A stretch of DNA of 64,000 nucleotides, taken from positions 50,132 to 114,131 of the forward strand of contig PGYA01000006.1 of NCBI GenBank assembly GCA_002839435.1, written 5' to 3'. Below are positions 8,409 through 28,085 of this stretch, one piece after another (position 1 is the stretch's first letter; each line of letters starts with the position of its first letter). The notes under the pieces were generated by a model. It searched no databases. It was given only the letters and a program-made list of their open reading frames with translations, and was not told the origin of the DNA. A program made the position numbers and the translations under genes. Source of the stretch: Candidatus Riflebacteria bacterium HGW-Riflebacteria-2. GTDB taxonomy: Bacteria > Muiribacteriota > Ozemobacteria > Ozemobacterales > Ozemobacteraceae.

Positions 8409-8417
8409 GAAATACAC

Positions 8418-9361: not shown

Positions 9362-9398
9362 GATAGTTTCTAGGTCTTCCGGGCTCAGCTTGGGGACT

Positions 9399-9433
9399 AA
9401 AAAGGCTTGGATGTTAGAGCATCCAGGCTTTTT
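9399..9433. terminator. Bidirectional terminator-like hairpin between convergent ORFs
   Basis: AAAAAGGCTTGGATG-TTAGAG-CATCCAGGCTTTTT. Confidence 0.6.
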
Positions 9434-9447
9434 TGTTGCCAGTTTAG

Positions 9448-10023: not shown

Positions 10024-10032
10024 TTTGTCACC

Positions 10033-10389: not shown

Positions 10390-10618
10390 GTTTTGCTCCT
10401 TTGCTTCTCGCATAATCAAATCCGCACATTTTAACTCTTGCGAGATTCTACAAATTAAGCATACCTCATTTTGCAAATTTACACAATAGCTGTGAAGACT
10501 TTTTGTTGATAAGTGTTACGGCTTGGGCAAATTAACCTCAATCGTTTGTTTGACCGATGGTGCTGATGTTTGGATTTACACGGCATGCCGTCGAAGGAAG
10601 ACCAAGATGCGTGTATAC

Positions 10619-11104
10619 CTAGGCCGCATCACACCAAGTCAAACAATGAAACAACAGCACAAAAACTTCACCGGCCGGAATCTGCCGGTCTATTTCTTGT
10701 AATGCTGGTTCAGCCGCCGGTCGGACTCTGAGCGCTCGGAGTATTTCTTTTGGTGTTCTGGCGTTTGGTTTGCTGGCAAGCGCACGCTGAAACGCCGGGT
10801 CGAGCTCGGAGACTTCAGATGTCAGATGCACCAAGCCATCCGTTACAAAATGTTTGGCCTGCTGCAAAATAGACGAATCATCTTCGTCTGCCTGGTTGGG
10901 GTTTGCTGCGATCTTTTCAAGAGTCGCAAGAGAGAATTTTACTTCGTCAGAGCCAGCGGCAGTGCCAGAATTTTCCCGATCATGTCCATGATCCAGATCA
11001 ATACCGGATGTTCCCGCTCGAACTTGGCCATCCGAGCGTCCTGTTCTTGTCTTGCCTGCTTTACCAATAGCTCCATGTTTTTCCGCGTCATGCTGAGCAC
11101 CCAC
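10619..11104 (-). pseudogene. Probable remnant of a larger mobile-element (polyvalent-like) protein
   Basis: Open frame containing GSDEVKFSL, no good start, in-frame stop shortly upstream. Confidence 0.3.
10932..10954. repeat. 23-bp direct repeat, copy 2
   Basis: Identical to 8717-8739. Confidence 0.9.
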
Positions 11105-11139
11105 TCCCTTGAAAATTTCTTCCGGAGCTCTGCCGTCAA
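10939..11139 (-). CDS. Small hypothetical protein (66 aa) with its stop codon inside the 23-bp repeat
   Basis: AGAGG RBS before the TTG start; helical, with a hydrophobic C-terminus. Confidence 0.4.
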   Translation of the reverse strand: MTAELRKKFSREWVLSMTRKNMELLVKQARQEQDARMAKFEREHPVLIWIMDMIGKILALPLALTK

Positions 11140-11571
11140 TATCCTCTACTCAAAGTCTAAGTCTGTTACCGAGAACCGTCAAGAAGTTTTACCTAATGTC
11201 GAGAAAGCAGCTGTAAGAACTATAAACAGGCGTCTGTTACCAATGCTTTTACCACTTTTTGCCAGTTTTACCACACAAAAACTTTCTTCATCAGGGAAAC
11301 CCAGGTGCTAACGATTTCAGCATAGAAGTCATAAAAATCCTGCCATCACTGGTTTTCTAAGCGATGTTTCTGCATCGCAGCGCAAGGAGATATTTGCCGC
11401 TGCTATCGGCCCAAAGTATTCGAACTGGCCTTACTATTAAAGGTTCAGTCGGCAAAGATCAATTGACTAAGTCATTGCAAATCGTTTATCTTGCCAGAAA
11501 ACTAATTCGATCGGGAGATGCGGGCACAACATTGTTGCCATGCAAGGAATTGTCAGGATTTGGGGACGATT

Positions 11572-12186
11572 TTGAACAGCGAAAAATACAGCATGTCTTT
11601 TACTACCGGCGGGCTGTTCCTGCAGGAATCAATCAAGCTCGCCCTTTTGCATCAACATCTGCAGAACTGGGAAACCGTCAAAGAGCAGGTTATTGCTGCA
11701 AATCTGCTGCAGGCCAGAACTATCAACAGCGCAAAACGGGTTTGTTACGAAATTATCAACAGGCTCAGACAGCTTTCACCAGATGAGCTTGAGCTGCTGT
11801 TGGACGGCGATGTCCACGAACAAAAGCACGTTCTCTGGCTGGCGATCTGTCGACATTATCGTTTTATCGCAGATTTTGCCAGTGAGGTTATGCGTGAACG
11901 TCTCCTCAGCCTGCAAACAGATCTTAAACCGGAAGAATTCGATTTTTTTCTTAACAGGAAAGCAGAATGGCATGCTGAGCTTGAAAGTCTCAGCCCGTCT
12001 ACCAGAACAAGACTTCGCCAGGTTTTGTATAAAATGCTTCGTGAGTCTGATATGTTGAATGACAATTACATCATCAATGCCGTAATGCTCAGTCCACGTC
12101 TTTTGAGCGCAATTCCGCGCGAAAGGCGTCATGATGTATTTACCTTTCCGGTTTTTGAATCAGGCGTGAGAGGTAAAACTCAATGA
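11572..12186 (+). CDS. brxA: BREX protein BrxA (DUF1819)
   Basis: YSMSFTTGGLF, NLLQART, LWLAICRHY.FI.DF..EV and STR.RLRQVLYKMLRE motifs; first gene of the operon; start (TTG 11572) uncertain. Confidence 0.92.
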   Translation: MNSEKYSMSFTTGGLFLQESIKLALLHQHLQNWETVKEQVIAANLLQARTINSAKRVCYEIINRLRQLSPDELELLLDGDVHEQKHVLWLAICRHYRFIADFASEVMRERLLSLQTDLKPEEFDFFLNRKAEWHAELESLSPSTRTRLRQVLYKMLRESDMLNDNYIINAVMLSPRLLSAIPRERRHDVFTFPVFESGVRGKTQ

Positions 12187-12791
12187 AAAATAATTTCCAG
12201 AAAAGTTCTCTGGCAGAAAGATTTAAGCACCTGTTTTCTGTTATCTCAGGCCCGCGCTTTCTCAAAAAACAAGGCCTCGGCAACGAAGTCCCTTTCTTCA
12301 TCTGCCCATATAAACCAGAAGAGAGCATCGAAATGACACGCCTGCAGGGGCAGCTTGTCAATAAGCTTGAGCAAAAGGGAATTCGAGTGCTCGAAATTAA
12401 TCTCTACGACCTGTCTGTCGAAATTCTGAGAGATCGCGGCATCTGGGAGCAAACGTTGGAAAGAGAAGTTGCCGTCAGCAAAGATGAGCTAAAAGAGCTC
12501 CTGCAGGGTGTTCTTGACACAGAAGACCATCTGATTCCTGCAATTGCAGCAAAAATGAGAGAAGCAGACTTTGACGTCATGTTTCTGGCAGGCGTCGGCG
12601 AAGTTTTTCCCTATATCCGTTCGCACAACATACTTAATAACCTTCAAAGCACAGCAAAAGATAAACCGACATTGATGTTCTTTCCGGGAGCATATACTCA
12701 CTCGCTTGAATCCGGCGCATCGCTGAATCTTTTTGGCATGTTTCATGACGGGTATTACCGGGCTTTCAATATTTTTCACTGTGAAGCATAA
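12183..12791 (+). CDS. brxB: BREX protein BrxB (DUF1788)
   Basis: GLGNEVPFFICPY, GVGEVFPYIRSH..LNNLQ, FFPG.Y and YYRAFNI motifs; ATGA overlap with brxA. Confidence 0.95.
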   Translation: MKNNFQKSSLAERFKHLFSVISGPRFLKKQGLGNEVPFFICPYKPEESIEMTRLQGQLVNKLEQKGIRVLEINLYDLSVEILRDRGIWEQTLEREVAVSKDELKELLQGVLDTEDHLIPAIAAKMREADFDVMFLAGVGEVFPYIRSHNILNNLQSTAKDKPTLMFFPGAYTHSLESGASLNLFGMFHDGYYRAFNIFHCEA

Positions 12792-12805
12792 GAGAGGCAT
12801 ATCTG

Positions 12806-15800
12806 ATGAAGCTAAAAAACATTTTCACCAAACCGGTTGACCGCCCGATCGAAGGAGTCATCAAAGCCGATGACGAAGCCAGCCTGAGACTCGAAATAGA
12901 AGAATACGTTCTGACCAACGAGGTCGAAAAACGCCTGGAAAGCTTTCTTGATGCCTATATCAATTACGAAAACGCCAACGGCGTGTGGATCTCCGGCTTC
13001 TTCGGTTCTGGTAAATCACACCTGCTCAAGATGCTCGCCCTGGTTCTTGAGAACCGCCAGATCGACGGCATGGCAACTCTGGATCTGTTTATGCCAAAGT
13101 GTGAACATAATGAAATCTTACGTGGTGATCTCAAGCGCGCTGTCAGCATTCCATCAAAAAGCATTTTGTTCAACATTGATCAAAAGGCTGATGTTATCAG
13201 TAAAACTCAGATAGACGCGTTGCTTGCGGTATTTGTTAAGGTGTTCGACGAAACCTGCGGTTATTATGGCAAACAGGGACATATAGCCCAGTTTGAGCGA
13301 GACCTGGACAGCCGAAATCTTTATTCTGACTTTAAAACGGCCTATGAGAGCATTGCCAGCCGCCCATGGGAAAGAGGCCGCGAACAGGCCTTGCTTGAAG
13401 CAGCAAACATCGCCAAAGCTTATTCGAAAATTACTGGCAGCAGCGAAGCCGATGCTCAGGGAATCCTCGACAAATACCGCAGTCAGCATCGTGTGTCTAT
13501 TGAAGATTTTGCCGACCAGATAAAGGCCTGGCTCGATCGCAAGCCAGCGAACTTTCGGCTGAACTTTTTCGTCGACGAGGTTGGGCAGTATATAGCAGAC
13601 AACGTGAAACTGATGACCAATCTTCAGACCATCGCCGAAAGCCTGGCAACAAAATGCCGCGGCCGCGCCTGGGTTATTGTGACCGCCCAGGAAGAGATGA
13701 ACTACATCGTTGGCGAGATGAGCAAGCAGCAGAGTAATGACTTTTCCAAAATTCAGGCTCGCTTCAACAACCGCATGAAGCTGACCAGTTCTGATGTGGC
13801 CGAGGTCATACAAAAGCGCCTGCTGACCAAGAACGAAGAAGGCATTCAGCAGCTGACTGATCTTTACCATAAGGAATCAAACAACTTTAAGACACTTTTC
13901 GATTTTGCCGATGGTTCACAAACCTACCGGAACTACCAGGATCGCGAGCATTTCATACACAGTTATCCATTCACGCCCTATCAGTTTGTGCTGTTTCAAA
14001 CCGCAATTCTAAACCTTTCGCAGCATAATGCTTTTGAGGGAAAGCATAGCTCAGTCGGCGAACGTTCAATGCTTGGGGTGTTCCAGCAGGTTGCTATTCA
14101 GATCGGTGACCATAAAATAGGGCAGCTGGCGACCTTCGACCTGATGTTCGAAGGTATTCGCACAGCCCTCAAATCAAACATTCAGCAAGCTATACTCAAA
14201 GCCGAAAAACAGCTCGATAACCAGTTCGCGATAAAGCTGTTAAAAACACTTTTTCTGGTAAAATACGTTAAAGAATTCAAGCCAACTTTGCGCAATCTCA
14301 CAGTGCTTATGCTTGAAGGCTTCAAGAGCGATCTGCCCGCCCTGCGCAAAAAAATTGAAGAAGCCCTGAATCTGCTTGAACAACAGAGTTACATTCAATT
14401 TAACGGTGATCTGTTTGAATACCTGACCGACGAAGAAAAAGACGTCGAGCTCGAAATCAAAAATACCGAAGTTGAAGCCGCCGACATTCAGGCCGAACTC
14501 GAAAAAATCATCTTTGACTACGTAATCAAAAACCGAAAGATCCGTTTTCAGGAAAGCGCACAGGATTACTCCTATTCAAGAAAACTTGATGACCATCTGC
14601 ATGGCCGCGAATATGAGCTGGCAATAAATGTCATCAGCCCATTTCATGACCAGATTGCCAATGAGCCATTTTTCCGCATGCAAAGTATGGGGCGCGATGA
14701 GCTTATAGTGGTGATGCCGCCTGATCCCCGCCTGATCCACGAGATTTTCATGTATAAGCGCACCGAAAAGTATATAAAGCAGAACATCAGCATAACCCAG
14801 CAGGAAGCGATCAAGCGCATTCTCACCGACAAAGGCTTTCAGAACCGGGAGCGCTATACAGATCTGCAGCAACGTATTCAAAAACTGCTCGGCCAGGCAA
14901 AATTATTTGTGGCCGGCACTGACATTGAAAGCAGCTCAGAGGACGCACAAACTCGTATAAGTTCAGGATTTTACGAGTTGATAAATCGAACTTACGCAAA
15001 TTTACGTATGCTGCGCGGAGTTGTCTACAGCGAAAATGATATCGCCAGATACCTCAAAAATCAGGGGCTTTATGATGACAACGTTGCTTCCCTTCCAGAA
15101 TCAGAACAGGAACTGCTGGCCTTTATCCAGAGTAATAACCGTGGGGGCGTGCGCACTACCCTTAAAAACCTGATTGAGCGTTTTGAGCATAAACCATACG
15201 GCTGGAATTTCCCTGCTATTCTATGTATTGTAGCCAGCCTGTGCTCCAGGGGTAAGCTCGAAGTCAGATCAGATGCCAATGTTCTTGAAGACAACGAACT
15301 TGAGCGATCATTGCGCAACACCCAGGCGCATGCCAATCTGGTTCTTGAGCCTCAAATCGAGTTCACCGCTTCGCAGGTGCGTTCACTTAAAGCATTTTTT
15401 GAAGATTTCTTTGATTCACCGCCGCAGAGTAACGAAGCAAAAGTTCTGGGTAAAGAAACCGGCAGCGCCATGCAGGAGCTCATGCATCAACTTACACCTG
15501 TTGCTGCGCAAGCAGCTCAGTATCCATTTCTGAATACTCTCAAACCGGCACTTGAAAAGCTTAAAGAGTTTTCTGGCAAGCCTTACACCTGGTATTTAAC
15601 CGATCTGATTCGACGACAGGATGAACTGCTTGACCTCAAAGAAAGTGTTATCGATCCGATCCGAAAGTTCATGAACGGCCCACAAAAGGCCATTTTCGAT
15701 ACTGCCCGCAAGTTTGTGCAAGATCAGGAATCGAATTTTGCCTATATTGAGGGCAACGAGGCCGAGCAGATCGCTGGCGCTCTTACTGAAGCAGACTGCT

Positions 15801-16363
15801 ATAAGGGAAATCGCATGCAGCAGGTCAAAGTGCTGACCGAGTCCGTTCAAAAACAGATCAACGACCAGATCGCCGCTGAAATAGAAATTGCAAAAAAATC
15901 AGTTGCATCACTCAAGGAGCGGCTTTGTGGCATGAATGAGTTTGCCTCTTTAAGACCCGAACAACAAGAAGAGATCACCGGCCCGTTTGATGAGTTTTCG
16001 CGGGCAATTGCCAGCCATAAGCTTATTGCTGTAGTACGCGATACGCTGCGCCGCTTTGAAGAAAGTGATTATCAGAAGTATCTTACCCGTCTGGCCAACA
16101 TGGGCCGACCAGCTCCAGTTCCAGCTCCGGCAAAGCCTGTCAGCACCAGAACCTCGACTAAAGGTAAGCCGACTGACTTCCAGGATGTTGAAAAGGAGCC
16201 CAATAAGATCGAGCCTGAGATTGAATATATCAGCAGTCGTGCTATACATGTCTCATTTGCCAAAGCCTGGCTTGCCGACGAAAACGATATCGACTGCTAC
16301 GTCACATCAGTGCGTGAAGCTATGCTTGCCGAAATCCGCAAAGGCAAAAGAATTCAGATCTAA
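12806..16363 (+). CDS. brxC: BREX P-loop ATPase BrxC
   Basis: RPIEGVIKAD, Walker A GFFGSGKS, Walker B FFVDEVGQYI, SYPF and GERS motifs; 1185 aa. Confidence 0.96.
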   Translation: MKLKNIFTKPVDRPIEGVIKADDEASLRLEIEEYVLTNEVEKRLESFLDAYINYENANGVWISGFFGSGKSHLLKMLALVLENRQIDGMATLDLFMPKCEHNEILRGDLKRAVSIPSKSILFNIDQKADVISKTQIDALLAVFVKVFDETCGYYGKQGHIAQFERDLDSRNLYSDFKTAYESIASRPWERGREQALLEAANIAKAYSKITGSSEADAQGILDKYRSQHRVSIEDFADQIKAWLDRKPANFRLNFFVDEVGQYIADNVKLMTNLQTIAESLATKCRGRAWVIVTAQEEMNYIVGEMSKQQSNDFSKIQARFNNRMKLTSSDVAEVIQKRLLTKNEEGIQQLTDLYHKESNNFKTLFDFADGSQTYRNYQDREHFIHSYPFTPYQFVLFQTAILNLSQHNAFEGKHSSVGERSMLGVFQQVAIQIGDHKIGQLATFDLMFEGIRTALKSNIQQAILKAEKQLDNQFAIKLLKTLFLVKYVKEFKPTLRNLTVLMLEGFKSDLPALRKKIEEALNLLEQQSYIQFNGDLFEYLTDEEKDVELEIKNTEVEAADIQAELEKIIFDYVIKNRKIRFQESAQDYSYSRKLDDHLHGREYELAINVISPFHDQIANEPFFRMQSMGRDELIVVMPPDPRLIHEIFMYKRTEKYIKQNISITQQEAIKRILTDKGFQNRERYTDLQQRIQKLLGQAKLFVAGTDIESSSEDAQTRISSGFYELINRTYANLRMLRGVVYSENDIARYLKNQGLYDDNVASLPESEQELLAFIQSNNRGGVRTTLKNLIERFEHKPYGWNFPAILCIVASLCSRGKLEVRSDANVLEDNELERSLRNTQAHANLVLEPQIEFTASQVRSLKAFFEDFFDSPPQSNEAKVLGKETGSAMQELMHQLTPVAAQAAQYPFLNTLKPALEKLKEFSGKPYTWYLTDLIRRQDELLDLKESVIDPIRKFMNGPQKAIFDTARKFVQDQESNFAYIEGNEAEQIAGALTEADCYKGNRMQQVKVLTESVQKQINDQIAAEIEIAKKSVASLKERLCGMNEFASLRPEQQEEITGPFDEFSRAIASHKLIAVVRDTLRRFEESDYQKYLTRLANMGRPAPVPAPAKPVSTRTSTKGKPTDFQDVEKEPNKIEPEIEYISSRAIHVSFAKAWLADENDIDCYVTSVREAMLAEIRKGKRIQI

Positions 16364-16372
16364 GGTAAACTA

Positions 16373-18046
16373 ATGATCTACGATGAGAAAGAGATTCTTA
16401 GACTGATCCAGCAGGGTGAAAGCCTGGTGTTGGAGTTTAAAAGCGACCTTAAGAGCCTCCCTGATCGCGAATTGATCGCCGCGATAGTTTCCCTTGCCAA
16501 CACCGAAGGTGGCAATCTGTTGCTTGGGGTTGAAGACGATGGTTCTATTACCGGCCTGCACTTAAACCACAATAACCTCAATGGGCTGCCGGCAATGATT
16601 GCAAACAAAACCAATCCATCAATTTCTGTATCGGTCGAGCTTTTAAAGGTTCAAGGGCATAATATTGCATGTATCAGCGTGCCCAAATCCAGGCAGCTGG
16701 TATCTACTTCTGAAGGTCTTTTGCAGCGGCGACGCATTAAGCTTGATGGCACACCGGAAGCAGTTCCGTTTTACCCACATGAGTTTATTCAAAGACAGTC
16801 TTCAATGGGTCTGATTGATCCTTCAGCAATTCCGATGCTCGACATCGCAGTCGAAGAGCTTGATCCTCTGCAAAGACTTCGCATTCGCAATGCCATCAAA
16901 AAGTATGGTGGTGATCAGAGCTTGCTTCCATTAGCTGACGACGAACTTGACGGAGCTATGGGTCTTGTCGTAACTGTCGATGGACATAAACGGCCAACTT
17001 TGGCAGGCCTTCTGCTACTGGGAAGCGAAAGTTTGCTGCGTCGTCATTTGCCTGCCTACGAAGTTGCTTTTCAGGTGCTGCGTGGCACGGATGTTCTGGT
17101 CAATGAGTTTTTCCGCAAGCCGCTTTTAGAAACCTTCGAAGAAGTTGAATTGCTGTTCAGAGCCAGGGTAAGCGAAGAAGAAATTCAGGTTGGCCTTTTT
17201 CGGGTTCCTATTCCCGATTTTGACCGTCGCGCTTTTCGTGAGGCATTTGTTAATGCCCTGGCGCACCGGGATTACGGTCGCCTCGGCGCAGTTCATGTCA
17301 AAATGGATACTGATGGTCTGACTATCTCCAACCCGGGAGGATTTGTCGAAGGAGTAACGCTCGAAAACCTGCTTGTTGTTTCTCCTCGCGCCCGCAATCC
17401 CTTGTTGGCAGATATCATCAAGCGCATTGGCCTGGCTGAACGCACTGGTCGTGGTATCGATAGAATTTACGAGGGTATGTTGCGATATGGTCGCCCGGCA
17501 CCAGATTATGGCATGTCAGATTCTTCAACCGTTACATTGCAGATGTCGAGTGCCGAAGCCAACCTTGATTTTCTCAAGATGATTTTGCAGTGCGAAGACC
17601 GGGCAGGCGGATTTATGCCCATTGACAGTCTTATTATTCTCTCAAGGCTAAGTGAAGAAAGACGCCTGACCACTTCTGATCTGCTTGTTTCAGTGCAAAA
17701 GCCAGAAGCATCAGTTCGTGCCAGCCTGGAAAAGCTGGTTGAAGCAGGTCTGGTCGAGCCACACGGCGCGGGACGCGGTCGTATATATATGTTAAGTGCC
17801 AAGGTTTATCGACAGTCAGGTCAGAAAGCAGCCTATGTTCGCCAGGCTGGATTCAACCTGATTCGACAGGAACAGATGGTGCTTACCTATATAGAAAGTC
17901 ATGGTCATATAAAGCGGTCAGATGTTATCGAACTTTGTAGTCTGACCCCATCACAGGCCTATCACCTTTTAAAAAAGCTCAAGGATCAGAAAAAAATCAT
18001 ACAAACAGGGGAAAAGCGCCATGCCTTTTACACAAAGAATACCTAG
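16373..18046 (+). CDS. Schlafen/AlbA_2 domain + HATPase_c_4-type domain + C-terminal winged-HTH protein
   Basis: GESLVLEFKS...SLANTEGG.LLLGVEDDG (AlbA_2); REAFVNALAHRDY, SNPGG, RNP and ERTGRGIDRI; C-terminal wHTH-like segments. Confidence 0.88.
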   Translation: MIYDEKEILRLIQQGESLVLEFKSDLKSLPDRELIAAIVSLANTEGGNLLLGVEDDGSITGLHLNHNNLNGLPAMIANKTNPSISVSVELLKVQGHNIACISVPKSRQLVSTSEGLLQRRRIKLDGTPEAVPFYPHEFIQRQSSMGLIDPSAIPMLDIAVEELDPLQRLRIRNAIKKYGGDQSLLPLADDELDGAMGLVVTVDGHKRPTLAGLLLLGSESLLRRHLPAYEVAFQVLRGTDVLVNEFFRKPLLETFEEVELLFRARVSEEEIQVGLFRVPIPDFDRRAFREAFVNALAHRDYGRLGAVHVKMDTDGLTISNPGGFVEGVTLENLLVVSPRARNPLLADIIKRIGLAERTGRGIDRIYEGMLRYGRPAPDYGMSDSSTVTLQMSSAEANLDFLKMILQCEDRAGGFMPIDSLIILSRLSEERRLTTSDLLVSVQKPEASVRASLEKLVEAGLVEPHGAGRGRIYMLSAKVYRQSGQKAAYVRQAGFNLIRQEQMVLTYIESHGHIKRSDVIELCSLTPSQAYHLLKKLKDQKKIIQTGEKRHAFYTKNT

Positions 18047-18221
18047 GCATTGCACGTCGTGTTTAGTCTATACACGCAAGTGCATAGACTCGTGTATAGA
18101 AAGCATGATATGCGCTGAGTTTAGAGATCTGCGCCAATTTATGCGCCAGACGCATAAAAATGTTCTATTAAAATTTTAAATAATTATAAAATGAAACGGC
18201 AAAGGCAAAACGAATAAAAAC

Positions 18222-19397
18222 ATGATTACGCAATTTGAGCTAAAGAATTTCACCGCTTTCAGCGACATTAAGATCACTTTTTCTCCCCAAATCAATGTAA
18301 TCATCGGCGAAAATGGCACTGGTAAAACCCATTTGCTCAAGGCTGTCTATAGCATGTGCGCCGGCGCGCCGCTTTTTAATACCAAGCATAATCCCAACGA
18401 TGAGGATCTAGAAGAAACGCTTACAACCAAGCTAATTCGTCTCTTTATGCCTTTGAACCATAAGCTCGGCAAAATTCATCGCCAAGGGGCAATTGAGAAG
18501 GCATATATGCACGCCAGATTTGCCCAAGACCAGAGCATTTCTGCAACTTTTTTCAATAACTCCAGGTCTATTTCTATTCAAAATCAGAACAACTACGATC
18601 AATATCAGACTACGGCGGTTTTCATCCCGACCAAAGAGGTTCTTTCGCTAGTGAAGGGGATAACAGACAAAACGCATGACCAGAAAACAGTCGAACTTAT
18701 CTTTGATGATGGTTACGTAGATCTTGCAAATGCGCTTATGAAAACAGCACGGGAGGATGTAGAAACTAAGATCAATCTTGAGCCGCGTCTGAATGCAATT
18801 ATTCCAAATCTGGTTAACCTAATAGGCGGGCGTTACCAATTGAAAAACGGCGGCTTCTGCTTCCAACCAGGTAAATATGAGGAAAAGGCGGCTCCTAATA
18901 GGTCTAAAGCCCAAACAGCCCAAATATATCAAGATTCCACCGTAAAAAAATTTATTGCAACCAAAAAACAGCCATATTCGAGTGAAATGACGGCAGAGGG
19001 GTTCAGAAAAATCGGAATTCTGCATCGACTCCTGAACAACGAAACACTCAATCCTGGGTCAAGCGGTCCACTATTATGGGACGAACCTGAGTCCAACCTG
19101 AACCCCAAACTGATGAAACAACTCGTGCAAATTCTGCTGGAGTTATCACGCAATGGCCAGCAGATCATTTTGGCAACTCATGACTACGTCTTACTCAAGT
19201 GGCTCGATCTGCTCATAGACAAAGACAAAAATGACCATGTGCGCTTCCACAGCCTTTACCGCGATCCTGACACCACAGAGATCAAATTAGCCTCAACCGA
19301 TTATTACTCGAGAATCACACCGAACCCGATTGATGAAGCCTTTGGCTCTCTCATCAATCAGGAGATCGAAAATGACATGGGAGGCCTCGGCAAATGA
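18222..19397 (+). CDS. ABC-type ATPase (AAA_15/AAA_21-like)
   Basis: LKNFTAF, Walker A GENGTGKT, signature-like TAEGFRK, Walker B/D-loop LLWDEPESNLNP, H-loop ATHD. Confidence 0.9.
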   Translation: MITQFELKNFTAFSDIKITFSPQINVIIGENGTGKTHLLKAVYSMCAGAPLFNTKHNPNDEDLEETLTTKLIRLFMPLNHKLGKIHRQGAIEKAYMHARFAQDQSISATFFNNSRSISIQNQNNYDQYQTTAVFIPTKEVLSLVKGITDKTHDQKTVELIFDDGYVDLANALMKTAREDVETKINLEPRLNAIIPNLVNLIGGRYQLKNGGFCFQPGKYEEKAAPNRSKAQTAQIYQDSTVKKFIATKKQPYSSEMTAEGFRKIGILHRLLNNETLNPGSSGPLLWDEPESNLNPKLMKQLVQILLELSRNGQQIILATHDYVLLKWLDLLIDKDKNDHVRFHSLYRDPDTTEIKLASTDYYSRITPNPIDEAFGSLINQEIENDMGGLGK

Positions 19398-19930
19398 AGG
19401 TCGTTGAAGCTGACGGTTTCGAGTTTCGGTTTACGGATGCCTTGGAAGCGTTCGTTTTCGACGAGAAGGACAAAACCAAACCCACATTTCACGGAGCGCC
19501 CATGAAGGGCGTTGACATCGTGGCTGAGTTCGATAAAGCGTATGTCTACGTTGAGTTGAAGGACTATGACGACCCCTCTGTTTACGACGTCCTCGGTGCC
19601 GCAAACGACGGCGAACAGATATCTCGACAGGCATGCTTCAAATGGTTGAAAAATTATCTGAAATACAAGTTCAGAGATTCCTACCTCTACCGGCACGCCG
19701 AGCAGAAGGTTGAAAAACCAATCCACTATGTCTGCCTAACCACCTTTGATAATGCCCTGAACACTCGGATGCAGAAGGCGCTTAAGCAGGAACTTCCCGT
19801 AGGCAAAGCTTCACGCCGTTGGGCTCAGGCTCTGGCTACAAGTTGCCAAGTCGTAAACATAAACAAATGGAATGAGAACTTCCCGAAATGGCTAGCCAGA
19901 CGTATCAACACGGCAACAGAAGGAGCATGA
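19394..19930 (+). CDS. Hypothetical protein, putative PD-(D/E)xK-like nuclease
   Basis: MKGVDIV...YVELKDY matches the D...ExK spacing; ATGA overlap with the ATPase. Confidence 0.6.
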   Translation: MKVVEADGFEFRFTDALEAFVFDEKDKTKPTFHGAPMKGVDIVAEFDKAYVYVELKDYDDPSVYDVLGAANDGEQISRQACFKWLKNYLKYKFRDSYLYRHAEQKVEKPIHYVCLTTFDNALNTRMQKALKQELPVGKASRRWAQALATSCQVVNINKWNENFPKWLARRINTATEGA

Positions 19931-19931
19931 G

Positions 19932-22900
19932 ATGGACACTTCTAAAATCAAAAAATTTGCACAGTATGCGCGGCGGAATTTGATCGAACAGGTTGAGGCA
20001 AAGCTCAAGCTGGTTCTGGCTGGTGGAAGCGCAGCGCGCCGAGAGAATACTGCAGCAATAAAGAAGCTTGAAGAAAGTATCGCTGCCAGCAGCAAAGAAC
20101 AGGTTGTCGAGCGGGTGGCCTATATCTGGTTCAACCGCTTTTGCGCTCTGCGATATATGGATATCAATCGATATACTGGCATTGGTGTGGTCTCACCGGC
20201 AGCGGGGCAATTTCAACCCGAGATTCTGGCAGAAGCCAAAATGGGGCATATCGCTGATGAAATAGCTTCAGACAAAGTCAAACAGCAGGTTTTTGCCGTA
20301 TTAGACGATAAAACACCCAGTCGCGATCCGCAGGGCGAAGCATATCGCCTGTTAATTGTTGCTGTCTGCAATTTCTGGAACAAGCAGATGCCGTTTCTGT
20401 TTCAGCGCATTGACGATTTTACCGAACTGCTGATGCCAGATGACCTGCTGTCGGGCAATTCAATTCTGGCCTATACCCGCGAAGCAATGACACCAGAGGT
20501 TTGCCAAGATGTTGAAGTAATCGGCTGGCTGTATCAGTTTTATATTTCTGAGAAAAAAGACCGGGTTTTCGAAGGTCTCAAGAAGAACAAAAAGATCACA
20601 CCCGAAAACATTCCGGCCGCCACCCAGCTTTTTACACCACACTGGATTGTGCGCTATCTCGTCGAAAATTCACTTGGCCGCCTCTGGATGCTGAACCGGC
20701 CCAACTCAAAGCTGATCAAAAAGATGGACTATTACATCAAGCCAGATCAGCCTGAAACTGATTTTTTGCGGGTCAGCAAACCCGAAGAGATCAAGATCTG
20801 CGACCCGGCCTGCGGTTCGGGGCACATGCTGGTTTATGCCTTTGATCTGCTTTACGCAATTTACGAAGAAGAAGGCTACGAGGCTGTCGAAATACCAGAA
20901 AAAATCCTGACCAACAATCTCTACGGCATAGAGATCGACGAACGCGCCGGTGAACTGGCTGCCTTTGCCCTGGCTATGAAAGCCCTGCAATACGACAAGC
21001 GTTTCTTTCGTCGCATGAACGGTGACGATAAGACCGTCAAGCCGAATGTCTGCGTTCTGCAGAATGTAATCTTCGATGATAAAGAACTCAAAGATTATAT
21101 GGACTTCGTTGGCAGAGATCTCTTTGCAGCCCCGCTGCAGACCACCCTGCGCCAGTTCGAAGAAGCCGATAACTTCGGCTCCTTGATCAGACCGGATGTC
21201 ACCGACGTGGACGGTATGCTCAGGATTCTGGAGACAAAGAACGTTTCGGAACATCTATTTATAAGCATTACACACCATAAGGTGCTGCAAGCCATGCGGC
21301 AGGCCGATTACCTCAGCCCGAAATACCATGTGGTGATTGCCAATCCGCCTTATATGGGTAGCCGGAGCATGAATAAACGTCTCGATGCTTTTGCGAAAGG
21401 AAATTATCCACTTTCGAAAGCGGACATTTATGCAATATTCATTGAACGCGGATGGAGTCTTAGTAAGAAACTTGGCTACCTTGGATTCATAAGCATGCAG
21501 TCTTGGATGTTTCTGTCTTCTTTTGAGAAGTTACGGAGCTGGATGCTTTCAAGCTCAACTATCACCAACATGGCACATTTGGGTGAAAGGGCCTTTGATT
21601 CGATAGGAGGTGCGGTTGTTTCAACAACTGCATTTATTACGCAAGTTCGACGTGCAACCGAAGTATTTGGGACATATGTTCGCCTAACTGGTGGTAAGAA
21701 TGAGAGTGAAAAATCTGAGATGCTGCGAAACGCGGCGTTAGGTATAGCTCCGGATATTACCTACAGGACTACCGATGTGAATTTTAAAAAAATACCGGGA
21801 AGTCCAATTGCATATTGGGTGAGTCAGCCAGTTCTTGACGCATTTACGTCTTGTGACCGCGTGTCTGATAAGGTTACAACAGCTTATGGCTTGATCACCA
21901 TGGATAATAATAGGTTTGTTCGCGAATGGCAGGAAGTCAATCTGCGTGATGTCTTCCTAAAGCAGGGCGACTCGGATGACTGGGTTCCCTACAACAATGG
22001 TGGAACATTCAGGAAGTGGTTCGGAAACCACGAAAACGTAGTCCGTTGGAAAAACGATGGCCAAGAAGTAAAACAATTTGCCAAAGACAAGAACGGAAGC
22101 ATCACAAGGACCGTGGTGGGGCAAGGGCATTACTTCAAGGAAGGGATTTCATGGAATGCTATCTCAACGGACAAAATTGGGGTTCGTCATTTCCCAAGCG
22201 GTTTTATTTTTTCAAATGCGAGTATGTGCGCGTTTGGAAAAGAGCGAGATCTCGATATCACCTGTAGTGTTTTGAACGCTAAGGTTGCTCCACATTTCCT
22301 CCGTATCCTTGCGCCTTCGGTAAACTTCGGAGCTATGCAAATTGGTGCAGTGCCTTTCCCCAAAACAGGTCAGACCAATGCTGTTTCTGAAACGGCTCGT
22401 CGGTTAAGTGCCGCGGGAAAATTTGACTGGAATTCCTACGAAACCTCTTGGGACTTCACCGGCCTCCCACTACTGAATCCAGAATACCGTCAAGCAACTC
22501 TGAAAAACACCTACCAGAAGCTCCGCGCCCACTGGCGGGAGATGACGCTGGAGATGCAGCACCTGGAGGAAGAGAACAACCGTATCTTCATCGAGGCTTA
22601 TGGCCTACAAGATGAACTGACGCCCGAGGTGCCGCTGGGCGAGATCACCCTGACCTGCAACCCTTGGTATCGCTATGGCAAAGAACTGCCTGAACAAAAA
22701 AAGGGCGAATTCCCGATAGACCAGGAACTCGAAGACCGCCTGCTCGCCGATACCATGAAAGAATTCATCAGTTACGCTGTTGGTTGCATGTTTGGCCGCT
22801 ATGCACTCGAAAAACCGGGGCTGATTCTCGCCAATCAGGGCGAGACATTCGAAGATTATCTGAAGCAGATCCCCGAACCCAGCTTTCCCGCCGACAAAGA

Positions 22901-23483
22901 CAATGTAATACCAATGCTCGACGGTGACTGGTTCACCGATGACATCACCGAGCGCTTCAGACAGTTTTTGCGCGTCACCTTTAGCGCTGAGCATTATGAA
23001 GAAAATCTCAAGTTCATCGAAGATGCCATCGGCAAAGATATTCGCAAAGATTTTCTTAAAGATTTTTACAGCGACCATGTTAAACGCTACAAAAAACGTC
23101 CGATCTACTGGCTGTTCTCAAGTCCCAAAGGCAGCTTTAACGCGCTGATCTATATGCATCGCTACCGCCCTGACACGGTCAGCGTGGTTCTTAACGACTA
23201 CCTGCGCGAGTTCCGCACCAAGCTCGCCGCCCGACTTGACCACCTGAAGCGTGTCGAAGCCAGCGGCGATGCCTCAAAAGCCGAAAAAGCCAAAGCGTTG
23301 AAAGAGATCGAAAACCTCAAAAAAACCATCGACGAACTCAACACCTGGGAACACGATGTGCTCTATCCGCTTGCCACCAGCAAGATAGAAATAGACCTCG
23401 ACGACGGCGTCAAAGCCAACTACCCCAAATTTGGCACTGCCCTCAAAAAAATACCCGGCCTTGATGCAAAAGATGAAGAGTGA
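19932..23483 (+). CDS. pglX: BREX-1 adenine-specific DNA methyltransferase PglX
   Basis: WFNRF.ALRYM, GWLYQFY, ATQLFTPHWIV, motif I DPACGSG, motif IV NPPY, KKRPIYW and IDLDDGVK.NY. Confidence 0.97.
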   Translation: MDTSKIKKFAQYARRNLIEQVEAKLKLVLAGGSAARRENTAAIKKLEESIAASSKEQVVERVAYIWFNRFCALRYMDINRYTGIGVVSPAAGQFQPEILAEAKMGHIADEIASDKVKQQVFAVLDDKTPSRDPQGEAYRLLIVAVCNFWNKQMPFLFQRIDDFTELLMPDDLLSGNSILAYTREAMTPEVCQDVEVIGWLYQFYISEKKDRVFEGLKKNKKITPENIPAATQLFTPHWIVRYLVENSLGRLWMLNRPNSKLIKKMDYYIKPDQPETDFLRVSKPEEIKICDPACGSGHMLVYAFDLLYAIYEEEGYEAVEIPEKILTNNLYGIEIDERAGELAAFALAMKALQYDKRFFRRMNGDDKTVKPNVCVLQNVIFDDKELKDYMDFVGRDLFAAPLQTTLRQFEEADNFGSLIRPDVTDVDGMLRILETKNVSEHLFISITHHKVLQAMRQADYLSPKYHVVIANPPYMGSRSMNKRLDAFAKGNYPLSKADIYAIFIERGWSLSKKLGYLGFISMQSWMFLSSFEKLRSWMLSSSTITNMAHLGERAFDSIGGAVVSTTAFITQVRRATEVFGTYVRLTGGKNESEKSEMLRNAALGIAPDITYRTTDVNFKKIPGSPIAYWVSQPVLDAFTSCDRVSDKVTTAYGLITMDNNRFVREWQEVNLRDVFLKQGDSDDWVPYNNGGTFRKWFGNHENVVRWKNDGQEVKQFAKDKNGSITRTVVGQGHYFKEGISWNAISTDKIGVRHFPSGFIFSNASMCAFGKERDLDITCSVLNAKVAPHFLRILAPSVNFGAMQIGAVPFPKTGQTNAVSETARRLSAAGKFDWNSYETSWDFTGLPLLNPEYRQATLKNTYQKLRAHWREMTLEMQHLEEENNRIFIEAYGLQDELTPEVPLGEITLTCNPWYRYGKELPEQKKGEFPIDQELEDRLLADTMKEFISYAVGCMFGRYALEKPGLILANQGETFEDYLKQIPEPSFPADKDNVIPMLDGDWFTDDITERFRQFLRVTFSAEHYEENLKFIEDAIGKDIRKDFLKDFYSDHVKRYKKRPIYWLFSSPKGSFNALIYMHRYRPDTVSVVLNDYLREFRTKLAARLDHLKRVEASGDASKAEKAKALKEIENLKKTIDELNTWEHDVLYPLATSKIEIDLDDGVKANYPKFGTALKKIPGLDAKDEE

Positions 23484-23490
23484 GAAATCA

Positions 23491-26037
23491 ATGAACCCCA
23501 AAATAGCACAGGCGGTTGCCAGGCTTTTTACCAAACATCGCATTGTTTTCTGGTATGACATTAAGCGCGAATTGCGGGCAGATTATGAAGCCCTGGAAAT
23601 GCCGGACGTCGAAAAAATCGTTATAAATAATAACGAATATGCCCTGAAATACCGAATTTTGCGTGAAGAGCCGGAACAAAAGTTTCTGCTCTATCGTGAA
23701 GGAGCAAAACCGGCAGAGCTCGACAACTGGTTGCTCGACGTTGAGCTTGCCCATTGCGAATTTCGCACCGACCAGATTGCAATCTGGCTCTCAGAACTTG
23801 ATCTTGGCATGGATTTTTCTGATGTGGTTGCTGCGCATGGCGAATTCTACCAGGCTGCCCGGCGAAAAGATGCGCTTAAACGCCTGCTCAAGTCTGACGA
23901 TACCATTGGTGTTATTCGCATGAAAATGCTGGCAGTTTGCGCAGGCAGCGATGCCAGACTGGACACTGTCCTAGAAAGCCTGCTGCAGGAGCTTGCAGAT
24001 GGCAGCAACGAAAAATACAAACTTATCTGCCGCTGTGGCCTTGATACCGTTTTGTGGGAGCAGGTCGCTCGACATTTTGACTACGAATCAACTGCGAAAA
24101 ACCTTAAGGATTTTGCCATTCGTGTTTTTGCAGACTGCTTCGAAATAGCTGTTTTTCCTGGCAGATACTGGGAGACACGCAAAAAAGACCGCGAGGCAAA
24201 ACGGCCGCCATCTCGAATGTCACAGGAAATACAGGTCTTTTTTAAGCGCTGGAAAGACAGTCGACAGTATGAATCCGGCTTTGAAAAGCTTTCGCACGAA
24301 TGCTCAGAAATTCTCAATGTTGAAAGCGATCTGGCAGGTATCAACTTTCGTGATCTGATCGAACCCGATTATTTCAGCCTGATAGATCGAAAGATCATCA
24401 GCGACCTGGTAAAGACCGTGGCGGCCGGCACCGTTTCAAGTGGCGATGTTGCCATCTGGGTTCGCCAAAGACGCCAGAGTCACTGGTATAGCGAATACCG
24501 TAGCCTTTATGAGGCAATCGACTACGCTGCTCAATTTAAACAGCTGCTTGGCGAAACAAAACTGACCATCGAAGGCCTTGAAGATGGTGTGACCAGATAC
24601 TGTCAGAGCTGGTATAAGCTCGATCAGTTATATCGCAAATTTGTCTATCATGTGCGCACAGCTGGCCAGATTTCGTTGCTGAGCGAGCTTGCGGAACAAA
24701 TTGAAAACCTTTATTCGAACAATTACCTGCTTAAAATTAATGACACCTGGCAGTCTCTGATTAACCAGGCCGGCAAATGGAACGTGCCATCGGTTACCTC
24801 ACAGAAAAAGTTTTTTGAACGCTGGGTTAAACCTTTTCTGCAGAAAGACAACAAGGTCTGTGTGATCATCTCAGACGCCTTTCGCTACGAAATCGGTCAC
24901 GAGCTTCTGAGCTTGATTCGCCAGGAAGATCGTTACAGCGCTGAAATATCCCATGCGCTGGCAATGCTGCCCAGCTATACACAGCTTGGCATGGCGGCAC
25001 TTTTGCCCAACAAAAATTTGTCTCTGGCAGAGAACGATACTGGCATAGTGCTGGTTGACGGCCAGAGTTCACAGGGAACAGCCAATCGCGACAAGATCCT
25101 CTGCAAAGCGGTTAGCGGTGGTGCAACGGCTATAAAGTCTGAAGATCTGATGGCTCTTAAAGGCGATGATTGCCGCTCTTTGTTGCGCGACCACAATGTT
25201 GTCTATGTTTATCACAATCGCATCGATGCTACCGGCGACAAACGCGAATCAGAAGATCGGGTTTTTGAAGCGGTTGAAGAAACGCTTCTGGAGCTTATAA
25301 AACTGATTAAAAAGCTGACCGGTGCCAACGCCAATAATCTGCTGGTCACTTCTGATCATGGTTTTATCTACCAGAACAGAGCTATTGATGAAAGTGATTT
25401 TGCCGGCTGCGAGCCAGAGGGCGATCAGATTTTGTTTAGAGACCGTCGCTTTGTTCTTGGCATGGGTCTTAAAGAAATTGCCGGTCTGCGCAAATTTTTG
25501 TCCTCCGAACTGGATCTCAGCGGTAATATGGAAGTACAGATTCCGAATTCTATTAACCGTTTACGCCTGAAGGGTTCTGGCAGCAGATACGTGCATGGAG
25601 GTGCTTCTCTGCAGGAAGTAATAATACCTGTTCTGAAGATCAACAAAAAGCGGCAGAGCGACGTATCTGTGGTTGATGTTGATATTCTGCGAGGTTCAAG
25701 CTCTATAATCTCCTCGGGCCAACTGGCGGTAGTGCTATATCAGAGCCAGCCAGTCACCGAAAAGCTGCAGCCCAGATTTTTGCGCGCCGGCATTTATACA
25801 GAAGATGGTGAGCTGATTTCAGAGAGCCATGATCTGATCTTTGATCTTACCTCTGACAACCCGCGCGAACGCGAGCTACAGGTGCGCTTTGTGCTTTCAC
25901 GAAAAGCAGACTCTGTAAACGGCCAGGATGTCTTGCTCAAGCTTGAAGAGAAGCATGAAGATACAACCCATTACAAAGAATACAAATCGCTTCGCTATGT
26001 TATGCGGCGTTCGTTTACTACAGATTTTGATTTTTGA
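23491..26037 (+). CDS. pglZ: BREX-1 alkaline-phosphatase-family protein PglZ
   Basis: RIVFWYD, IISDAFRYE, LPSYTQLGMAALLP, YHNRIDA.GD, TSDHG and YVHGGASLQE; ATG at 23491. Confidence 0.96.
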   Translation: MNPKIAQAVARLFTKHRIVFWYDIKRELRADYEALEMPDVEKIVINNNEYALKYRILREEPEQKFLLYREGAKPAELDNWLLDVELAHCEFRTDQIAIWLSELDLGMDFSDVVAAHGEFYQAARRKDALKRLLKSDDTIGVIRMKMLAVCAGSDARLDTVLESLLQELADGSNEKYKLICRCGLDTVLWEQVARHFDYESTAKNLKDFAIRVFADCFEIAVFPGRYWETRKKDREAKRPPSRMSQEIQVFFKRWKDSRQYESGFEKLSHECSEILNVESDLAGINFRDLIEPDYFSLIDRKIISDLVKTVAAGTVSSGDVAIWVRQRRQSHWYSEYRSLYEAIDYAAQFKQLLGETKLTIEGLEDGVTRYCQSWYKLDQLYRKFVYHVRTAGQISLLSELAEQIENLYSNNYLLKINDTWQSLINQAGKWNVPSVTSQKKFFERWVKPFLQKDNKVCVIISDAFRYEIGHELLSLIRQEDRYSAEISHALAMLPSYTQLGMAALLPNKNLSLAENDTGIVLVDGQSSQGTANRDKILCKAVSGGATAIKSEDLMALKGDDCRSLLRDHNVVYVYHNRIDATGDKRESEDRVFEAVEETLLELIKLIKKLTGANANNLLVTSDHGFIYQNRAIDESDFAGCEPEGDQILFRDRRFVLGMGLKEIAGLRKFLSSELDLSGNMEVQIPNSINRLRLKGSGSRYVHGGASLQEVIIPVLKINKKRQSDVSVVDVDILRGSSSIISSGQLAVVLYQSQPVTEKLQPRFLRAGIYTEDGELISESHDLIFDLTSDNPRERELQVRFVLSRKADSVNGQDVLLKLEEKHEDTTHYKEYKSLRYVMRRSFTTDFDF

Positions 26038-26051
26038 AGGACAGCTAATTT

Positions 26052-28085
26052 ATGAACACACTCGACCAGAAGATTAACGATCACTTCCAGGGCCTGGTAG
26101 TCAGAAAAGATCTGGTAAAAGCGGTCAAAGGCAACGCCGTGGTGCCTTCTTACGTTCTTGAATATCTTCTCGGCCAATATTGTGCCACGAGTGATGAAGC
26201 TACGATTCAAACCGGCATTGAAACCGTCAGAGAAATTCTGCGCAAGCATTATGTTCATCGTAGCGAAGCAAACCTGGTGCGTTCTGAAATTGCCCGTCTC
26301 GGCCGATTAAAAGTTATTGACCGCATAGAAGTGGATTTTGTTGATGACAATGGCAGTCACGAAGCGAGCTTTGAGAATCTTGGCATCTCAAAGGTTCTTA
26401 TTGATGCCGACACCGTAAAAAAGAACAGTAAGCTCCTGGTCGGTGGCGTCTGGTGCATCGCGGATCTCGAATATACGCCGTCAGAATCAAAAGCTGTGTG
26501 CCCATGGATTTTAACTTCTCTGAAGCCAATTCAGCTTTCGAGTTTCGATCACGATAATTACCTGAAAATGCGCAGATGTTTCAGCACCGATGAGTGGATC
26601 GACCTGCTGATGCAGAGCATCGGCTTTAACCCAGAGTTCTTCGGCAAGCGCAGCAAGCTTACTCAGCTTAGCCGGCTTATTCCTTTCTGCGAAAGAAATT
26701 ACAATCTGATCGAACTTGGCCCAAAAGGCACCGGCAAATCGCATATTTACTCAGAATTTTCACCGCATGGCACTTTGGTTTCTGGTGGTGAAGCTACTCT
26801 GGCCAAGCTTTTTATCAACAATAACTCCGGCAAAATTGGCCTGGTCGGCTACTGGGATGTAGTGGCACTCGACGAGTTCGCCGGCAAAAACAAGAAGCCC
26901 GATATAAAGCTGATCGATACGCTCAAAAACTATATGGCTAACAAGTCGTTTAATCGTGGCACCGGCCCACAGAGCGCAGAGGCCTCAATGGTGTTCATTG
27001 GCAACACCTCGCACAATGTGCCTTATCTGCTTAAACACAGTGATCTTTTTCATGACCTGCCGGAAAACTACCGCAACGCTGGTGGACATGCAATCTTAGA
27101 CCGCCTGCACCTTTTTGTGCCGGGCTGGGAGATGGATAATCTGAGAAACGAGCTTTTCAGCGATGGCTACGGGTTCGTCGTCGATTATCTGGCTGAAGTT
27201 CTGAGATCTTTGCGCGATCACGATTTTTCTGATCGTTACTCAGAGCACTTTTCGCTGTCGCCTGACATCTCAACCCGCGACCGTGATGGGATCAATAAGA
27301 CTTTTGCCGGGCTCATGAAACTGTTGTTTCCACATGGCGAAGCAACCAGGGAAGAGATCGAAGAAGTCTTGAAGTTTGCCATTGAAGGGCGTAAAAGAGT
27401 TAAAGATCAGTTGATGCGCATTGACGCCACTTATGGCAAGGTAAGCTTTGCCTATCGAGACAAAGAAGGCAAGGAATCTCTAGTCAAAACCCTCGAAGAG
27501 GAAGAATACCCTGGCTTTTACTACAACAAAATCCTTGACGAAGATTCAGCAGCGACGGTTGCCGTCGCTCAGAGTATTGCAGCTGCCCCCAAAACTGAAT
27601 TGCGCGAGCATCACCAGACCATTCAGGAAAACCAGCGCGGAATTTCATTTGATTCTCTGCTTGGGCCCTATCTGCTTGGCGCCCGTAAAATAGTTATCAC
27701 CGACCCATACATTCGGCTATTTTACCAGGTCAGGAATTTGATGGAATTCATTGAAATGTTAGTAAGGCAGAAGAAGGAAGACGAAGTAATCAGCATTGAT
27801 CTGATAACGGTCGAAGACGACTATAAATGCGAGCAGCAGCTTGAAAGCCTTGAAAAGATCAAGGAAGCCTGCCAGATGGCGGGCATCGAGTTTAAATGGG
27901 AATTCGCCACCAACGGTTCAATCCACGCTCGCCACATAATCACCGACCACGGCTGGAAAATCTCACTGGACCGTGGCCTCGACATTTTCCAACACTACGA
28001 AATGAATGACGCTCTCAGCCTCACCAACCGCCTGCAGCAGTTCCGACCCTGCAAAGCCTTCGAAGCAACCTTCATCAAGCTTTGA
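26052..28085 (+). CDS. brxL: BREX protein BrxL with a C-terminal MIT_C/PLD-like domain
   Basis: VVRKDLV, PSYVLEYLLGQYC, Walker A GPKGTGKS, LDE and RKRVKDQL; C-terminal ITDPYIR...HARHIITDHGWKISLDRGLDIFQ; no Lon protease motif. Confidence 0.93.
   Translation: MNTLDQKINDHFQGLVVRKDLVKAVKGNAVVPSYVLEYLLGQYCATSDEATIQTGIETVREILRKHYVHRSEANLVRSEIARLGRLKVIDRIEVDFVDDNGSHEASFENLGISKVLIDADTVKKNSKLLVGGVWCIADLEYTPSESKAVCPWILTSLKPIQLSSFDHDNYLKMRRCFSTDEWIDLLMQSIGFNPEFFGKRSKLTQLSRLIPFCERNYNLIELGPKGTGKSHIYSEFSPHGTLVSGGEATLAKLFINNNSGKIGLVGYWDVVALDEFAGKNKKPDIKLIDTLKNYMANKSFNRGTGPQSAEASMVFIGNTSHNVPYLLKHSDLFHDLPENYRNAGGHAILDRLHLFVPGWEMDNLRNELFSDGYGFVVDYLAEVLRSLRDHDFSDRYSEHFSLSPDISTRDRDGINKTFAGLMKLLFPHGEATREEIEEVLKFAIEGRKRVKDQLMRIDATYGKVSFAYRDKEGKESLVKTLEEEEYPGFYYNKILDEDSAATVAVAQSIAAAPKTELREHHQTIQENQRGISFDSLLGPYLLGARKIVITDPYIRLFYQVRNLMEFIEMLVRQKKEDEVISIDLITVEDDYKCEQQLESLEKIKEACQMAGIEFKWEFATNGSIHARHIITDHGWKISLDRGLDIFQHYEMNDALSLTNRLQQFRPCKAFEATFIKL

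Follow-up and report, generated by a model that had tools for sequence, protein, structure and literature searches.

The window analyzed here, a stretch of 64,000 nucleotides from Candidatus Riflebacteria bacterium HGW-Riflebacteria-2 (contig PGYA01000006.1, positions 50,132 to 114,131), harbored a complete type I bacteriophage exclusion (BREX) operon, consisting of six genes in one orientation (11518-28085, + strand). Nested in this operon, two genes encoding an ATP-binding cassette (ABC) ATPase and a putative nuclease corresponded to the two components of HEC-02 (Hma-embedded candidate 02; PADLOC-DB v2) and are referred to as HEC-02A and HEC-02B. HEC-02A (18222..19397, + strand, ATG start) encodes an OLD/AAA_15-type ABC ATPase of 391 aa, which was assigned by PADLOC (PDLC04213) and Pfam (AAA_15 and AAA_21). 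HEC-02B (19394..19930, + strand, ATG start) encodes a putative PD-(D/E)xK (NERD-like) nuclease of 178 aa, assigned by PADLOC (PDLC04229), its sequence motif, and an AlphaFold2 (AF2) model. The stop codon of HEC-02A (TGA, 19395-19397) and the start codon of HEC-02B (ATG, 19394-19396) overlapped as ATGA, and a single base (19931) lay between the stop of HEC-02B at 19930 and the ATG of pglX at 19932. The interval between brxC and pglX contained three extra genes: one encoding a 557-aa protein, followed by HEC-02A and HEC-02B. An earlier reading of the DNA (hereinafter referred to as the sequence-only reading) had described a translationally coupled pair lying between brxC and pglX; the open reading frames (ORFs), the ATGA overlap, and the 1-bp spacing to pglX stood, but the pair is separated from brxC by the 557-aa gene.

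Both proteins matched profiles of the PADLOC database over their full length. HEC-02A was matched by PDLC04213 with an E value of 1.2e-111 (371.5 bits; residues 1-387 on profile positions 1-335 of 337), and HEC-02B by PDLC04229 with an E value of 2.9e-65 (residues 1-172 on profile positions 1-169 of 171). All nine PADLOC families matching the 178-aa protein were HEC-02B models, while the models for AriA, AbiLi, PtuA, GajA, and Old covered only parts of the 391-aa ATPase. The two genes were neighbors on one strand, A preceding B, as in the definition of HEC-02. In Pfam, AAA_15 and AAA_21 were identified in HEC-02A and no family matched HEC-02B at E ≤ 1; in NCBIfam, neither protein reached any family cut-off. 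The sequence-only reading had proposed an unnamed, distinct system, and this had to be given up, since the PADLOC check set beforehand confidently assigned both proteins to HEC-02, which already has a name. In substance, its description of a two-gene defence module nested in BREX, made of an ABC ATPase and a putative restriction-fold (PD-(D/E)xK) protein, was correct, as was its statement that the pair was neither the phage anti-restriction-induced system (PARIS) nor Septu, because the small protein matched HEC-02B models only and neither AriB nor PtuB in PADLOC. One PADLOC model labelled HEC-02B (PDLC04146, 344 positions) matched the ATPase and not the small protein (E 9.8e-52), which is a naming quirk of the database.

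Relatives of HEC-02B at E ≤ 1e-3 numbered 523 in a 90%-clustered collection, where every named one was "hypothetical," and 350 representatives in a 50%-clustered library, of which 81 were aligned. The motif KGVD41...VE54LK56D was present in HEC-02B, and F22, D23, D41, E54, and K56 were invariant in the 81 relatives, down to 28% identity; the KGVD...VELKD motif pointed out in the sequence-only reading thus proved to contain three invariant residues, D41, E54, and K56. The AF2 prediction from the single sequence was unusable (34.9 for pLDDT, the predicted score of the local distance difference test), and an alignment-based model was used instead (pLDDT 95.9, predicted template modeling score 0.90). 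In this model, D41 stood where strand 42-45 begins, and strand 50-56 contained E54 and K56, the classical β-hairpin position, so that the conserved D...(D/E)xK residues lay on adjacent strands as in PD-(D/E)xK enzymes. Foldseek ranked the small subunit of BspD6I as the best match of the model (E 0.032), ahead of Can2, Cdn1, and Hjc. In an exhaustive VIA-align search, the top matches were almost all restriction-fold nucleases, with Z scores of 7.1 (Upx), 6.4 (BspD6I), 6.4 (Cdn1), 5.9 (BstEII), 5.7 (CdiA-CT), 5.7 (McrC), 5.5 (Can2), 5.5 (Cfr10I), 5.4 (FokI), and 5.3 (Hna). NERD was the Pfam family matched by most of the relatives (five of the 81, weakly, best E 0.016), followed by Hjc (4), UPF0102 (2), PDDEXK_9 (1), and DpnII (1). 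The nearest Atlas clusters were named "hypothetical protein," apart from one auto-named "NERD domain-containing protein" (score 0.96). On the enrichment of fold matches together with the invariant motif, HEC-02B is a putative restriction-fold nuclease, no single match being decisive. A search of the Protein Data Bank (PDB) with the single HEC-02B sequence gave no match at E ≤ 10; with the profile, RsiV was the sole match (E 0.0082) and was judged to be due to chance.

For HEC-02A, conservation was assessed in an alignment of 66 relatives. Residues G29, N31, G34, and K35 of Walker A, A258, E259, G260, and K263 of a signature-like AEG..K motif, W286, D287, E288, P289, and E290 of Walker B, as well as P295, Q314, and H320 of the H-loop, were all invariant. 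The ATPase motifs described as intact in the sequence-only reading are therefore also fixed among the relatives as regards Walker A, Walker B, and the H-loop. The protein from the window contained an insertion of about 30 aa (about residues 213-243) that was absent from 62-81% of its clade. When the HEC-02A profile was compared with the PDB, the whole head aligned only to Rad50, and the P-loop region to PtuA, OLD, and AriA. No solved structure of HEC-02A or HEC-02B was found in the PDB by sequence and profile searches.

All genes of the host operon were encoded on the + strand and identified by PADLOC: brxA (11518..12186; BrxA, E 2.7e-79), brxB (12183..12791; BrxB, E 5.8e-67), brxC (12806..16363; BrxC, E = 0, full length), the BREX methyltransferase gene pglX (19932..23483; PglX, E = 0, full length; Pfam Eco57I and N6_Mtase), pglZ (23431..26037; PglZ, E = 0), and brxL (26052..28085; BrxL, E = 0; Pfam BrxL_N, BrxL_ATPase, and MIT_C).

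The genomic context of the pair was examined in 79 loci, obtained with one genome per species and with search patterns derived from 14 close relatives, a set biased to the clade of the window. Neighborhoods were typed by tblastn with the BREX proteins of the window, by ORF calling, and by PADLOC on 85 of the 98 neighbor ORFs; the other 13 came from loci L053, L054, L059, L072, and L032. The pair was located at the brxC-pglX junction in 56 of the 79 species-level loci. In 47 of these, a type I BREX like that of the window was found, with brxC upstream and/or pglX downstream, and in nine the junction belonged to a second BREX subtype (BrxC PDLC02489, PglX PDLC02528), which was recognized by tblastn only in L054 and L059. 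One pair was located in a type I restriction-modification (RM) locus, between the S and R genes (L066). No BREX neighbor was seen at the remaining 22 loci, five of which were contigs under 4 kb. None of the 79 loci had an Hma neighbor. Among the 70 related loci with ORF calls for both genes, A and B overlapped by 4 bp, in the same order and on the same strand, in 67. In 29 of the 31 loci with type I brxC as the immediate upstream neighbor, a 4-bp overlap joined the ATPase gene to the brxC stop, which indicates that the pair is normally co-transcribed with BREX, without a promoter of its own. Copies embedded in type I BREX (BREX_I) spanned at least eight phylum labels. The genome containing the window had one copy of the pair. 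Within its taxonomic order, a match was found in three of 51 genomes, and only that of the window genome was strong. In a plasmid collection (72,556 records), only two matches were found, both distant (31-33% identity).

Several of these loci had unusual arrangements. In L010 (7144-12460), L030 (7021-12539), and L034 (6929-12539), pglX was split and the HEC-02 pair was located between its halves, the N-terminal one (about 600 aa) lying upstream and the C-terminal one (about 590 aa) downstream. At one brxC-pglX junction (L020, 3805-8901), two cargo systems were found, PsyrT/PsyrA (E 2.8e-297 and 2.4e-157) and then HEC-02. Three arrangements came from metagenome-assembled genomes and are possible assembly artefacts: another HEC-02A (PDLC04214, E 2e-164) and then an ORF of 182 aa, after pglX (L045, 14134-15692), a second A with a truncated copy of B (L038, 11256-12715), and two full-length pglX genes in tandem (L023, 10545-17626). 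In L078, a complete genome record, the BREX and HEC-02 locus (4087-18900) looked decayed, with tblastn coverage of 44% for brxC, 66% for the ATPase, 50% for the nuclease, and 32% for pglX, alongside full-length pglZ and brxL.

With the proteins of the window as reference, identities were compared across 45 type I loci. The highest median identity was that of HEC-02B (77%), followed by BrxB (69.5%), BrxL (66.5%), BrxC (66%), PglZ (64%), PglX (61%), and HEC-02A and BrxA (52% each). HEC-02B was the most conserved protein of the locus in 37 of 42 loci. Correlations of pairwise distances were calculated for the 31 type I loci in which HEC-02A, HEC-02B, BrxC, and PglX were all full length. Those between HEC-02B and BrxC (r 0.80) and between HEC-02B and PglX (r 0.85) were similar to that between BrxC and PglX (r 0.83), while the correlations of whole HEC-02A were lower (r 0.49-0.62). 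The mean pairwise distance was 0.264 for HEC-02B. Within HEC-02A, residues 45-250, which comprise the ABC insert region, had a mean distance of 0.524 and a correlation with HEC-02B of r 0.40; for residues 251-391, these values were 0.253 and r 0.83. HEC-02A is thus a mosaic, its middle diverging fast while its C-terminal third is conserved and co-varies with the nuclease, and this combination supports a split into sensor and effector. On a maximum-likelihood tree of 75 HEC-02B sequences, the BREX_I label required five changes, compared with a mean of 24 after shuffling, although the bootstrap was not fully settled; HEC-02B embedded in type I BREX was clustered, but not in a single clade. This evolutionary pattern is new here, and modest.

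Marks of a genomic island were found around the BREX locus. A tyrosine integrase gene (36774-38168, - strand) adjoined three tRNA genes on the - strand (38333-38619; tRNA-Met, tRNA-Met, and tRNA-Leu), and a DUF3987 gene (33337-34923, - strand) was located near the BREX locus. Together with the single copy in the window genome and the three matches among 51 genomes of its order, the integrase, the tRNA genes, and the DUF3987 gene indicate that the pair was acquired horizontally on a genomic island. A pair of HTH_XRE and M78 peptidase genes (9448-10476, - strand) also flanked the BREX locus.

HEC-02 was described as an ABC ATPase and a NERD (PD-(D/E)xK) protein embedded in Hma systems (Payne et al., 10.1101/2024.01.29.577857). 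One representative, introduced into E. coli MG1655 deltaRM, reduced phage plaquing, with a drop of orders of magnitude for specific phages, and this protection depended on both genes; HEC-02B was characterized as NERD-like with a (D/E/Q)xK motif, and that preprint left open how the ATPase senses infection (10.1101/2024.01.29.577857). Its discussion suggested that anti-defence proteins, e.g., Ocr, may be the trigger of embedded systems with an ABC ATPase. OLD-ABC ATPases paired with non-TOPRIM nucleases (PD-(D/E)xK, HNH, or PIN) have been reported from BREX or BREX-related loci in 594 taxa, and these dyads were proposed as a backup effector layer (PMC12839542, NAR 2026). The window pair shares with HEC-02 the gene order, the pairing of an ABC ATPase with a NERD-like PD-(D/E)xK protein, the co-oriented embedding within a larger defence system, and the (D/E/Q)xK signature, represented in HEC-02B by E54-L-K56 together with D41. 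It differs in its host, since HEC-02 was defined from Hma loci and the window pair sits in type I BREX. The OLD-ABC dyads belong to the same module class and occupy the same genomic setting, although the name "HEC" is not used in the text of that report (PMC12839542). HEC-02 is already named, catalogued, and experimentally tested, and its association with BREX as well as a role as backup have been put forward in the literature. The idea of a BREX-guarding module with a restriction-fold effector, put forward in the sequence-only reading, had likewise been hypothesized in both publications (10.1101/2024.01.29.577857; PMC12839542), so that the idea remains and its novelty does not.

Other systems resembled the pair in part. 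PARIS (AriA/AriB) also consists of an OLD-like ABC ATPase beside a nuclease effector in or near RM or BREX loci, and AriA hidden Markov models (HMMs) matched HEC-02A partially (E 6e-20, residues 1-135), with the PDB profile aligning the P-loop only; the effector in the window, however, is not of the TOPRIM/DUF4435 type, and no AriB match was obtained with PADLOC. Septu (PtuA/PtuB) likewise combines an ABC ATPase with a nuclease, and PtuA HMMs and structures matched the N-terminal P-loop region of HEC-02A, but these matches spanned only about 45-130 residues, and the partner in the window had no HNH or PtuB match. PrrC in the type I RM system EcoprrI, cited as the paradigm in the discussion of the HEC-02 preprint (10.1101/2024.01.29.577857), is an abortive module with an ABC-type ATPase that likewise sits within a methylation-based system; unlike the window pair, it consists of one protein that carries an anticodon nuclease domain, and coupling to the host system has been demonstrated for PrrC. 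With NERD (PF08378) and the PD-(D/E)xK superfamily, HEC-02B shares the (D/E)xK motif on a β-hairpin, although the Pfam NERD model was not significant for it.

Taken together, the window pair very probably represents HEC-02, an anti-phage system that is carried here as cargo between brxC and pglX of a type I BREX operon, on a genomic island linked to tRNA genes. What was established here, at the sequence level, is that the profiles place the pair in HEC-02, how its genes are arranged, and that the catalytic motifs are conserved; the evidence for protection comes from the one representative of the preprint, to which the window pair is tied by profile match. Several observations weigh against this assignment and the functional picture drawn from it. 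Foldseek retrieved no PDB structure at E ≤ 1e-3 for the HEC-02B model, the Z scores of its fold matches (5-7.1) are in the middling range of the tool, and the Pfam NERD model (PF08378) was unmatched not only by HEC-02B but, at significance, by 76 of its 81 relatives. Further, the distance correlations were obtained among related sequences and can be produced by co-transfer of the whole operon; they are no demonstration of functional coupling.

As a working model for HEC-02, HEC-02A would act as an OLD-like, ATP-dependent sensor or regulator. Its fast-evolving middle, the ABC inserts at about residues 45-250, may recognize a phage cue, and its conserved C-terminal third may hold or license HEC-02B through a presumed contact between the two proteins. 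HEC-02B would then cut nucleic acid by means of D41, E54, and K56 and stop the infection. Co-transcribed with BREX, the pair would thereby provide the locus with a second, mechanistically different defence layer.

A closer dependence on BREX is conceivable, although we regard it as rather unlikely: HEC-02 in this clade would not be autonomous but would monitor BREX or anti-BREX factors such as Ocr-like DNA mimics, and the nuclease would fire only upon an attack on BREX, as in PrrC/EcoprrI or PARIS/Ocr. The placement at the brxC-pglX junction in 56 of 79 loci, the overlap with brxC in 29 of 31 with pglX close behind, the finding that HEC-02B distances track BrxC and PglX as well as BrxC tracks PglX, and the conservation of HEC-02B above all other proteins in 37 of 42 loci are in accordance with such coupling, which has also been put forward for OLD-ABC modules in BREX (PMC12839542) and in the discussion of the HEC-02 preprint (10.1101/2024.01.29.577857). 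However, the HEC-02 representative tested there worked in E. coli without BREX, 22 of the 79 loci had no BREX neighbor and one pair was in a type I RM locus, and the BREX_I label changed five times on the HEC-02B tree instead of marking one clade. The search patterns had moreover skewed the locus set towards close relatives, and co-divergence is expected from plain operon co-transfer too.

An addiction module resembling a toxin-antitoxin system, in which a nuclease toxin held by the ATPase would mainly stabilize the BREX island and not sense phage, would fit the tight two-gene overlap, the location on an integrase- and tRNA-linked island, and the Pfam annotation of AAA_21 as a putative AbiEii-type toxin-system domain. 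We consider it very improbable, given that HEC-02, with both genes needed, lowered plaquing by orders of magnitude for specific phages (10.1101/2024.01.29.577857) and that a fast-diverging insert region in the ATPase suits the arms race of a sensor better than plain antitoxin duty. There is equally little likelihood that HEC-02B is an accessory nuclease cleaving unmethylated phage DNA for BREX with HEC-02A as its loader. Such an arrangement would agree with the fixed location ahead of pglX and with divergence in parallel to the BREX core. Canonical type I BREX works without HEC-02B, and close relatives of the pair exist outside BREX. Among the auxiliary nucleases of BREX loci, PD-(D/E)xK enzymes are the most frequent (PMC12839542), which favors such a role, but HEC-02 defends by itself in E. 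coli (10.1101/2024.01.29.577857).

HEC-02 as an anti-phage system carried by BREX accordingly remains our preferred reading, and little in it is new in kind, as HEC-02 is named, searchable in PADLOC, and tested. A bolder proposal, which we hold to be doubtful, is that HEC-02 of this widely transferred clade is now a fixed component and the guard of a composite BREX operon, where the hypervariable inserts of HEC-02A would sense phage anti-BREX factors or a disabled BREX complex and the highly conserved nuclease, whose divergence parallels that of BrxC and PglX, would execute the backup. If HEC-02 does guard BREX, the locus would be a natural model of wired two-layer immunity and not of two independent neighbors. 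In either case, it is a clean natural example in which to ask what HEC-02A senses and whether embedded modules are wired to their host system, and it offers testable handles in the most conserved nuclease, the mosaic ATPase, and the fixed junction across many phyla.

The third embedded gene (16373..18046, + strand) encodes a protein of 557 aa in which Pfam identified Schlafen AlbA_2, HATPase_c_4, and winged-helix domains (SLFN_AlbA_2, E 5.3e-16; HATPase_c_4, E 1.2e-18; weak winged helix-turn-helix matches). It has no dedicated PADLOC model and gave only weak matches to models associated with prokaryotic Argonaute. Counterparts with 71-76% identity were found between brxC and HEC-02A in L014, L016, L017, and L024. 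This domain architecture has been linked to BREX in at least 1017 taxa (PMC12839542), and bacterial Schlafens have been shown to defend (10.1101/2025.07.24.666596).

Between the 557-aa gene and HEC-02A, an AT-rich intergenic gap of 175 bp (18047..18221) was present, with a GC content of 36% (27.5% in the last 80 nt) and short palindromes, which is maybe regulatory. The sequence-only reading had suggested that an AT-rich gap upstream of the pair could hold a separate promoter. The AT richness was borne out, and the promoter is neither supported nor excluded by a simple consensus scan of the gap, which detected no sigma-70-like site on the + strand and leaves a promoter possible. Inverted repeats were identified at 18065-18076/18080-18100 and at 18138-18145/18151-18158, and the palindromes read TCTATACACG/CGTGTATAGA and TTTATGCG/CGCATAAA; they could represent an operator. 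TATGCGC-type repeats were also present in the corresponding gaps of L014, L017, and L024, all of which have the Schlafen-type gene, and the gap in the window goes together with this extra gene.

Two further features were observed at the 3′ end of the operon. BrxL carried a C-terminal MIT_C/phospholipase-D-like domain at residues 530-675 (Pfam, E 1.9e-42), which fits the HKD-type BrxL variants described elsewhere (PMC12839542). Directly 3′ of brxL, a gene encoding a 1112-aa Ser/Thr protein kinase was found (28233-31571, + strand; Pfam Pkinase, E 3.6e-38). Its GC content (41%) was below that of the BREX genes, and the PADLOC models mad6 (E 4e-45) and PD-T4-6 (E 1e-37) matched the kinase domain only; this gene may be a further defence gene.

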